Of a DNA stretch of 64,000 nucleotides, positions 61,242 through 63,370 are shown one piece after another. The translations under genes and the position numbers were made by a program. Source of the DNA: Alphaproteobacteria bacterium. Its GTDB lineage: Bacteria > Pseudomonadota > Alphaproteobacteria > Rs-D84. Position 1 is the stretch's first letter. Each line of letters starts with the position of its first letter. Under the pieces are notes generated by a model. The model made no database searches. It had not been told where the DNA came from and saw only the letters and a list, made by a program, of their open reading frames with translations. Location: positions 10,996-74,995 of the forward strand of contig JAFZUT010000023.1 of the NCBI GenBank assembly GCA_017618175.1, read 5' to 3'.

Positions 61242-61361
61242 GGGTGTTAGTGGTTATCCGTCTTCGCAATCTTACGATTGCTATGCCGAGACTGCGCCCG
61301 ACAGGTCGGGCTTGGTGTAAGTGGTTAGTGTGGGGGCATTGCGCCCGGATTGAAAAGTGGA

Positions 61362-61505
61362 TTACAGTTGGACATACACCAATTTCCCGTTTTTGGCATA
61401 GCATACGGGAACCTTGGCTTTTCTTGCAGCAGCCCGGGCCTTGCGGACGCCACGGTCTGCACACCGTTGTATTTTTTTAGATAATTCAATAGATTCTTTT
61501 GTCAT
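61362..61505 (-). CDS. Small basic ORF (47 aa) downstream of darG
   Basis: Translated by hand: MTKESIELSKKIQRCADRGVRKARAAARKAKVPVCYAKNGKLVYVQL. Weak RBS (AGGGA). Below the ORF-track cut-off. Confidence 0.35.
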   Translation of the reverse strand: MTKESIELSKKIQRCADRGVRKARAAARKAKVPVCYAKNGKLVYVQL

Positions 61506-61524: not shown

Positions 61525-62553
61525 TTATTTGACCAAATGGCAATTTTTCAATTGTCTATATGCGCGCAAAATATTATCTGGTGACATTATAGCTTTTTTT
61601 CTGTCATTCCAAGAATGAACGTATTTGACTATATCTTGTTCGGATTTTATATTATTGTGTGTGCAGACCCAATGCACAGTTCCAAGCAATTCCATACCAA
61701 AAGGTGTTTCATAACCGTATATTATCTTTTTTATTCTTTCTATGGCATGTAATAAATATGGTCTTGCGGCGATATATTTATCAACCTCGGCGATAACACC
61801 CGGCATAACATCTATATGATTTTGCTGTTGGCCATCGCCGAAGCCACTTAAATATGTCCCTGACATGTCACGCAATGCATTGTTTAATTGTGGAAAATAC
61901 GGTCCATAAATATGTTTTATATAGCGATTTATTATATCGTGTCTATCCAAGACCAGGCCTATGAAATATGCCAATTTTTGTGCCTCGATATTTCCAAGTT
62001 CATACATCCTGTCTAGTGCGGAATTATATATATTCACACATTTAATAAATGTTGCACGAAAATCGTTTAGATCAACCTTTGTTGCGTGCCTAACCTCATT
62101 AAATCTTGTGCTTGGTTCAAAGATAATGATGTCTGTGTCTAAATCGTTTAATTTTTGTATTATTAACTGTTTTACAGTTAACCAATCTAATCCGCCATTA
62201 CCGGCCCCAAGTGGCGGAATAGCAACTGATTTAATATTATATTTCTGTAATACAAGTTTCAAATCATCCAGCCCGGTTTCTATGTACTCCAGTTTAGATT
62301 TGCCACGCCAATGTTCTTTGGTTGGAAAATTGATAATATAATTCGGCTTTAACAGACCATTTTTTGTAACAAACATTTTTCCAACGACAACTTTGCCATT
62401 ATCACATGCATGTTTATATGATTTATAATTTTCAGGATATTTTTCACGAAATTGCAGGGCAATTCCTTTGCCCATTATTCCGACACAGTTGACGGTGTTC
62501 ACAACCGCTTCTGTCTCTGCCTTAAAGATATCGCCGTCTTGAATGAATTGCAT
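61525..62553 (-). CDS. darG: DarG antitoxin (N-terminal macrodomain ADP-ribosyl hydrolase plus C-terminal DarT-binding region)
   Basis: Macro motifs AVVNTVNCVGIMGKGIALQF and IPPLGAGNGGL. 342 aa. Starts immediately after the darT stop. Confidence 0.85.
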   Translation of the reverse strand: MQFIQDGDIFKAETEAVVNTVNCVGIMGKGIALQFREKYPENYKSYKHACDNGKVVVGKMFVTKNGLLKPNYIINFPTKEHWRGKSKLEYIETGLDDLKLVLQKYNIKSVAIPPLGAGNGGLDWLTVKQLIIQKLNDLDTDIIIFEPSTRFNEVRHATKVDLNDFRATFIKCVNIYNSALDRMYELGNIEAQKLAYFIGLVLDRHDIINRYIKHIYGPYFPQLNNALRDMSGTYLSGFGDGQQQNHIDVMPGVIAEVDKYIAARPYLLHAIERIKKIIYGYETPFGMELLGTVHWVCTHNNIKSEQDIVKYVHSWNDRKKAIMSPDNILRAYRQLKNCHLVK

Positions 62554-63243
62554 TTAGAAATACCAATCTTCCCTTATTTCCACTTTAATCTTTATTCCAA
62601 ATTCGTGCAACATGTTTTCTACACTATTTTTCATTTTTTCATTTTTAACAACAATCAAAGTTATTTTGCCCAAAGGGACACTTTCGAATACCAGGAATTC
62701 TGCTTGTCGCGCTTCTTTGCGTTTTACATACTTTTCTTCTGTGTCTGAATTTTGAAAGTATTTACAATATCCCGGAAATGGTGAATGTGCCACTGGCAAA
62801 TGCGGTTTTTCGTGTATCAATTCCCAACAAATTTTATCTAAATCTGTCTGGTTGTCATAGAAAGTGGCATATGCCGATACGGCCTGATAATCGGTAAATC
62901 TGAAATCTGTATTCAGCAGATTTAATATATCGGTAACAAAATATATGAAATTATTTTGGTTTGTTTCTTCTGCTTCTGGCACATTTTTGCCGACAACAGA
63001 ATATAACATTGGTGAACGTGGTGCAAAATAAAAGGGCACATAATCATGCAATGTCCGATCACCAGTGCCGACCAGGGTGCGTGCCCGTTTGTCTTGTATA
63101 TTGTTGCATGCGATGTTTATCGGCACAATTTTTTCCCGTCTTAGTACAAGTTTAGATTTTAATGCTTTACTTTGCAGTATGCTTTTCAAGTTTCGAAAAG
63201 CGGTGAAATGAAATACAAAGATTTTATCGGGTATATTTGCCAA
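62554..63243 (-). CDS. darT: DarT DNA ADP-ribosyltransferase toxin (DUF4433)
   Basis: FHFTAFRNLKSIL, LHDYVPFYFAPRSPMLY, and C-terminal QAEFLVFESVPL (catalytic Glu context). Confidence 0.85.
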   Translation of the reverse strand: MANIPDKIFVFHFTAFRNLKSILQSKALKSKLVLRREKIVPINIACNNIQDKRARTLVGTGDRTLHDYVPFYFAPRSPMLYSVVGKNVPEAEETNQNNFIYFVTDILNLLNTDFRFTDYQAVSAYATFYDNQTDLDKICWELIHEKPHLPVAHSPFPGYCKYFQNSDTEEKYVKRKEARQAEFLVFESVPLGKITLIVVKNEKMKNSVENMLHEFGIKIKVEIREDWYF

Positions 63244-63312
63244 TTTTATGCCTTGTCATTATGTTTTATTATATTTGTATATTTTCTTAAAATCAAATTT
63301 ATATTAGATAGT

Positions 63313-63340
63313 ATAAGAAAAGAGCTACCGAGGTAGCTCT
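63313..63340 (-). terminator. Intrinsic terminator of the upstream fibre gene (minus strand)
   Basis: AGAGCTAC-ctcg-GTAGCTCT followed by TTTCTT on the minus strand. Confidence 0.6.
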
Positions 63341-63370
63341 TTCAAGGACACAAGCATAATTTTGGTTAGA

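Follow-up and report, generated by a model that had tools for sequence, protein, structure and literature searches.

Near one end of the window, by which is meant the whole 64,000-nt stretch of contig that was analysed, two genes abut on the minus strand. The upstream gene, darT (62554-63243), begins with a TTG codon preceded by AAGG and encodes 229 aa, starting with the N-terminus MANIP... that is common to its homologues; the downstream gene, darG (61525-62553), begins with ATG and encodes 342 aa. The spacer between them is 0 nt, the TAA stop codon of darT (62556-62554) being followed directly by the darG ATG (62553), and these abutting stop and start codons suggest that the two genes are translationally coupled. 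An initial annotation of this DNA had described the same two reading frames, with no gap between them and with no strand given, and this description was confirmed, both frames lying on the minus strand. The motifs that it quoted for the first protein (FHFTAFRNLKSIL, DYVPFYFAPRSPMLY, and AEFLV) and for the second (VVNTVNCVGIMGKGIALQF and PPLGAGNGGL) are likewise all present.

The upstream edge of the darTG unit is formed by the terminator hairpin of the preceding fibre-like gene, a perfect 11-bp inverted repeat followed by a T-run (63319-63342, minus strand; …gagctacctcggtagctctttt…). Between this hairpin and darT, a consensus scan picked out a candidate sigma-70-like promoter (TTGATT-17 nt-TATAAT; 63268-63296, minus strand), which has 10 of 12 matches and ends 25 nt upstream of the darT start; it is a pattern match only, and the scan returned 20 promoter-like sites versus 8.9 expected, AT-rich DNA yielding many such matches. 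The composition of the pair is atypical. Its GC content of 35.5%, versus 43.5% for the genome (891,628 bp), lies at the 2.7th percentile of segments of the same size (z = -2.5), whereas next to it the 3' end of tolB and the region of the nuclease gene have a GC content of 53-55%. Thus, the A+T richness relative to the flanking tolB and nuclease genes, to which attention had been drawn earlier, is real.

Nineteen nucleotides after darG lies orf47 (61362-61505, minus strand), which has a GGGA ribosome-binding site and encodes a basic protein of 47 aa that has no Pfam match. Of 31 genomes of the genus, 6 encode a homologue (44-64% identity), and three of these 6 are without DarT. The possibility that orf47 is a third gene of the darTG operon was considered and rejected on the grounds that it has these homologues in the absence of DarT, that in one DarT-bearing relative (G014) it is found on a contig other than that of darTG, that it is absent from all 79 of the related darTG loci, and that its GC content is host-like. 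It is a genuine small host gene, and if it shares a transcript with darTG here, as is probable, this is owed merely to where it happens to lie. Farther downstream, the intergenic DNA after the nuclease gene contains an element of ~80 nt (61243-61330) with two GGTGT(T/A)AGTGGTTA copies 71 nt apart. Two other contigs of the same genome have further copies (G000 C1:590-669 and C9:41633-41680) that are 94-96% identical to it; judged from this recurrence, the element belongs to a small dispersed host repeat family and is not part of a darTG islet. The DNA that had been described as repeat-rich does contain a repeat, but one of only ~80 nt that lies just after the nuclease gene.

On the other side of the pair, the fibre-like gene (63371-64255, minus strand) runs past the end of the window, and it was followed, together with its upstream region to ~64760 of the window numbering, on the contig itself (C15 74366-75760). 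The neighbour reported as a large fibre gene does adjoin darTG, but its product has only 294 aa when followed past the window end. The protein has a signal peptide, is rich in Thr, Ala, Gly, and Asn, and has no Pfam match. In strains of the same species, fibre variants of 294 aa versus at least 318 aa are found beside an identical DarT. A tandem repeat with a period of ~127 nt is present in the non-coding DNA upstream of the fibre gene (C15 75269-75466), and beyond this gene lie those for a second secreted protein (~392-398 aa), a beta-barrel OMP, and ftsEX.

Family and subtype of the two proteins

The 229-aa protein, which had been assigned to DUF4433/DarT, matches the whole of that profile (PF14487, positions 1-201 of 201; 1.1e-53, 182.4 bits, cut-off 22.5). 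It also matches the NCBIfam toxin_DarT equivalog NF048013 over its full length (positions 1-204 of 204; 187.9 bits, cut-off 150) and the PADLOC DarT model PDLC02991 (1.2e-54). In the 342-aa protein, an N-terminal macrodomain (~1-150) and a C-terminal DarT-binding domain (~186-329) are predicted. This protein matches Pfam Macro PF01661 (2.4e-25), the PADLOC DarG model PDLC02990 over residues 4-337 (7.4e-116), and the NCBIfam antitoxin_DarG equivalog NF048014 over positions 4-338 of 338, with 381.3 bits (cut-off 250), whereas no YmdB-like ADP-ribose-binding model gives it more than 41.6 bits, the cut-offs there being 246 or higher. Thus, the protein is not a housekeeping macrodomain of the YmdB type, which had been named as the alternative to a DarG antitoxin.

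Among solved structures, the macrodomain of DarG matches those of Mycobacterium tuberculosis DarG (5m3i, 9.6e-52) and Thermus aquaticus DarG (5m31, 1.7e-46), and residues 186-329 match 7yk3_B, the DarG chain of the M. tuberculosis DarT:DarG complex (8.2e-15). The segment FPTK79EHW82 aligns with FPTKKHW of the T. aquaticus and M. tuberculosis structures; K79 corresponds to the catalytic K80 of T. aquaticus DarG, and W82 corresponds to its W83, which stacks on thymine. In addition, both ADP-ribose-binding loops are kept.

DarTG systems are split according to the antitoxin: in DarTG1 this is a NADAR protein and the target is guanosine, while in DarTG2 it is a macrodomain DarG and the target is thymidine (PMC11543638, PMC11825919). 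The window pair is assigned to DarTG2 because the partner of DarT combines a macrodomain with a DarT-binding C-terminal domain. DarTG1, represented by the system of Escherichia coli C7 (8baq), belongs to the same DarT superfamily and shares the toxin-antitoxin logic of ADP-ribosylating a DNA base. However, an assignment to DarTG1 was rejected. The antitoxin is a NADAR protein there and a macrodomain protein with no NADAR match here, DarT1 has Ser in place of the Tyr of the H-Y-E motif that is present in the window DarT, and the modelled fold of the window DarT resembles that of C7 DarT1 (TM 0.57/0.62) less well than it does the DarT2 structures. By analogy with characterised DarTG2 toxins, the window DarT is expected to target thymidine.

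The arrangement of the genes is also that of the family. Among the related loci, 79 in all, darT is followed immediately by a macrodomain darG in 78, and in the remaining one the contig stops short of the position in question. In the window, the DarT and DarG models of PADLOC are both matched by genes that abut on the same strand, and the canonical DarTG arrangement that had been proposed is borne out by the Pfam, NCBIfam, and PADLOC models together with the structure comparisons. The molecular identity of the pair as a canonical DarTG2 module can accordingly be stated with great confidence, and the probability that it constitutes an intact two-gene DarTG2 toxin-antitoxin operon is put at about 0.9. 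As a standard example of an already known module, the pair adds little on mechanism.

Fold and active site of DarT

An AlphaFold2 model of DarT made with 118 homologues has a mean pLDDT of 93.9 and a pTM of 0.91. It has the ART fold of Thermus DarT (7omv; TM 0.81/0.88) and also resembles M. tuberculosis DarT (TM 0.75/0.77), and both of these proteins are found among solved structures by sequence as well (7omv, 1.8e-19; 7yk3_A). In the DarTG2 systems of T. aquaticus and Thermus sp. 2.9 (7omv-7on0 for DarT, 5m31/5m3e for the DarG macrodomain), the genes have the same order, darT and then darG, but the DarT proteins of Thermus and the window are only ~28% identical. Identity to DarT of the M. tuberculosis system (Rv0059/Rv0060; 7yk3, 5m3i), which resembles the window pair in both the macrodomain and the C-terminal domain of DarG, is ~22%.

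In Thermus DarT2, H13, T15, and N19 bind NAD+, R51 polarises NAD+ and abstracts a proton, the active site further includes H65, Y71, and M78, with E160 as the catalytic glutamate, and the thymine is locked by H119 (PMC9967889; PMC11543638). The PDB chain used for mapping these residues has one extra N-terminal residue and an E160A mutation. In the structure-sequence alignments, H13, T15, and N19 correspond to H12, T14, and N18 of the window DarT, and R51, H65, Y71, M78, and E160 correspond to R53, H66, Y72, M79, and E182; all are kept. All 118 homologues have H66, M79, and E182; 117 have H12, 117 have R53, and 107 have Y72.

The sole departure in the catalytic set is Gln120, which takes the place of the thymine-locking His119 of Thermus. 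The equivalent position is Asn in 83, Gln in 18, and His in 17 of the 118 homologues, Gln being typical of the query's own clade (~52% identity or higher). M. tuberculosis DarT, which is proven to be thymidine-specific, is also without His at this position and has Asn. Because the His, Asn, and Gln variants all belong to macrodomain-paired systems, His119 is, as far as the alignment goes, a Thermus-specific feature and not one that defines the family. The idea that Gln120 is a sign of changed base specificity was also considered, and it is unsupported, given both the Asn of M. tuberculosis DarT and the pairing of all three variants with a macrodomain DarG.

A further difference from Thermus DarT is an extra stretch of ~20 residues before the catalytic Glu (residues ~146-173; window ~62725-62808). 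It is found in this clade and in 223-aa relatives and is absent from Thermus and M. tuberculosis DarT. Within it, G158, Y159, and C160 are conserved (GYCKYF…RYVKRKE), as is a motif RYVKRKE, and the query's clade adds ~7 further residues (PHLPVAHSPFP). The target motif of Thermus DarT is TNTC, and that of the window DarT cannot be read across from it. It is an unlikely but conceivable reading that the Gln120 clade, whose loop ahead of the catalytic Glu is extended, recognises a new ssDNA motif. This clade brings to three the residue types known where DarT2 enzymes contact the base, and it may be of interest for DarT2 engineering for DNA editing (PMC13368585).

Distribution and inheritance

The host genome is a MAG of 0.89 Mb in 29 contigs that is 96% complete, and the genomes of its relatives in the genus and the order are ~0.7-1.1 Mb. 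The genus comprises at least 257 species-level genomes, all of ~0.6-1.1 Mb, and the order of the genes round tolB, the nuclease gene, plsC, and ftsEX has undergone strong rearrangement from one species to another. Only 3 of 257 species genomes encode a DarT that scores above the NCBIfam cut-off, which makes it rare in the genus. The three loci are all different: in the window genome the pair has the fibre-like gene on one side and orf47 with the nuclease gene on the other, in G014 darT lies beside aspS, and in G099 it lies among small ORFs without an assigned function. In the genome collection, the nearest records with a DarT are MAGs of Alphaproteobacteria, of which one comes from yak caecum. 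A plasmid or phage origin was rejected, since no close relative is found there: the best plasmid match has 38% identity, and the best phage match, in a single Thermus phage, has 30%. Furthermore, no convincing flanking direct or inverted repeats, integrase, or transposase were found beside darTG.

Within the species, nine independent metagenome contigs encode an identical DarT in the same arrangement, which indicates that both genes remain intact and are being maintained. A search for an empty site in conspecific strains yielded none, every contig with an identical nuclease, orf47, or fibre protein having darTG as well; the same comparison with other species is uninformative, since the neighbourhood is rearranged between them. 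A sister species (DarT P0004) has the same synteny as the window, with ftsEX and OMP, a ~400-aa protein (39x/415 aa), fibre, darT, and darG. Its identity to the window is about 77-78% for DarT, 81% for DarG, and 81% for ftsE. This divergence like that of ftsE, together with the shared synteny, marks darTG as an accessory module of long residence rather than one inserted recently, and suggests that it has been inherited vertically at this locus since the window and sister species split.

The earlier suggestion of a small accessory or defence islet is upheld in part. The low GC content and the rarity (3/257) agree with it, but neither a sign of mobility nor another defence gene adjoins the pair, which seems to be long-resident, and the term "defence islet" overstates the locus. 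What has been retained in this gut-MAG lineage, in a genome of ~0.9 Mb, is a costly DNA-ADP-ribosylating toxin-antitoxin pair kept over speciation timescales; 99% of the species of the genus are without darTG, and the case is a small data point on the defence or addiction burden of reduced genomes.

Mechanism and possible roles

For enzymatic activity, toxicity, neutralisation, and target motif, the window pair is read through its characterised homologues. By this analogy, DarT would take ADP-ribose from NAD+ and join it to the N3 of a thymidine that lies within a short ssDNA motif, and the resulting thymidine ADP-ribosylation would block replication. The DarG macrodomain would hydrolyse the ADP-ribosyl-thymidine adduct by means of the catalytic Lys79 and the thymine-stacking Trp82, and the C-terminal domain of DarG would bind, sequester, and inhibit DarT directly. 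Adduct removal and DarT sequestration would together make a hybrid type II/IV toxin-antitoxin system, in which coupled translation would tie antitoxin synthesis to toxin synthesis. Upon phage infection, DarT would be expected to escape the control of DarG and ADP-ribosylate the phage DNA.

Anti-phage defence is taken as the leading role, at slightly better than even odds. Both DarTG1 and DarTG2 are experimentally established phage defences, according to LeRoux 2022 as cited in PMC11825919, and a defence role is proposed for the window pair because it is of the same subtype as the E. coli DarTG2 system (LeRoux et al. 2022), with a macrodomain DarG and matches to both PADLOC models. In contrast to that system, the window pair is found in an uncultured gut alphaproteobacterium with a genome of 0.89 Mb, and it has no defence-island context. 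Two findings have to be counted against this explanation: Gln120 stands in place of the Thermus His119, and no other defence gene, integrase, or prophage adjoins the pair. In addition, the pair has diverged from that of the sister species to the same degree as ftsE, and the long residence that this indicates is no less compatible with an addiction module or a physiological function than with defence.

An unlikely reading, although the first to be set beside defence, keeps the same machine but makes it a selfish addiction module or locus stabiliser. Loss of the locus would let a stable toxin outlast the antitoxin, and darTG would thereby anchor the adjacent cluster of variable surface proteins (OMP, 39x-aa protein, fibre) under strong genome reduction. 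The retention of the synteny in the sister species, where DarT (77%) and DarG (81%) have diverged like ftsE (81%), speaks for such an anchor, as does the fact that no other defence genes adjoin the window darTG and that the sister-species darTG sits inside an invertible fibre-gene cassette. However, this reading presupposes a difference in stability between DarT and DarG of the window pair, DarTG2 homologues do defend against phages, and stabilising and defence roles are not mutually exclusive.

Defence is also preferred to the improbable alternative that the same machine is an endogenous regulator of replication or growth. This alternative has a precedent in M. tuberculosis, in which reversible ssDNA ADP-ribosylation by DarTG controls replication and stationary-phase adaptation (PMC12170906, PMC7689832), and a domesticated function would fit the long vertical residence and the intact genes in all sampled strains. 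Yet the M. tuberculosis system is a conserved chromosomal replication regulator with an essential antitoxin, whereas the window pair is a rare accessory in its genus. A core regulator ought to be widespread and to keep its synteny, while DarT is confined to 3 of 257 species, with a different locus in each, and the GC content of the window pair is still foreign.

The invertible cassette of the sister species (L134 3770-8076; also L135-L137) is a block made up of a fibre gene (282 aa), darT, darG, and a convergent fibre gene (334 aa). It is bounded by 312-nt inverted repeats that are 99% identical and that span the promoters or upstream DNA and the signal-peptide codons, and hence the 5' ends, of both fibre genes. 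The block is seen in both orientations, in contigs from four metagenome samples, with the breakpoints exactly at the repeat edges. From its architecture, it looks like an inversion for phase or antigenic variation of the fibre, with darTG as a passenger. A cassette of this kind was ruled out for the window genome, which has a single fibre gene and no second copy of a fibre 5' end or repeat arm. It is doubtful, with odds well below those of defence, that darTG, instead of being a defence gene in its own right, is a long-term passenger and stabiliser of a variable surface-fibre locus. If this were true, the placement of darT and darG with the two fibre genes between 312-bp inverted repeats, in both orientations, could couple darTG transcription to fibre phase variation, and the dosage of toxin and antitoxin would change when the phage-receptor-like fibre switches.

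That darTG is a decaying or inactive remnant is hardly credible, for although the host genome is highly reduced and the change from His119 to Gln could in principle lower activity, both frames are intact and of full length with all catalytic residues kept, the DarT protein is identical in nine contigs from several samples, and Gln120 is conserved across its whole clade (18 of 118 homologues), which argues for selection and not decay.
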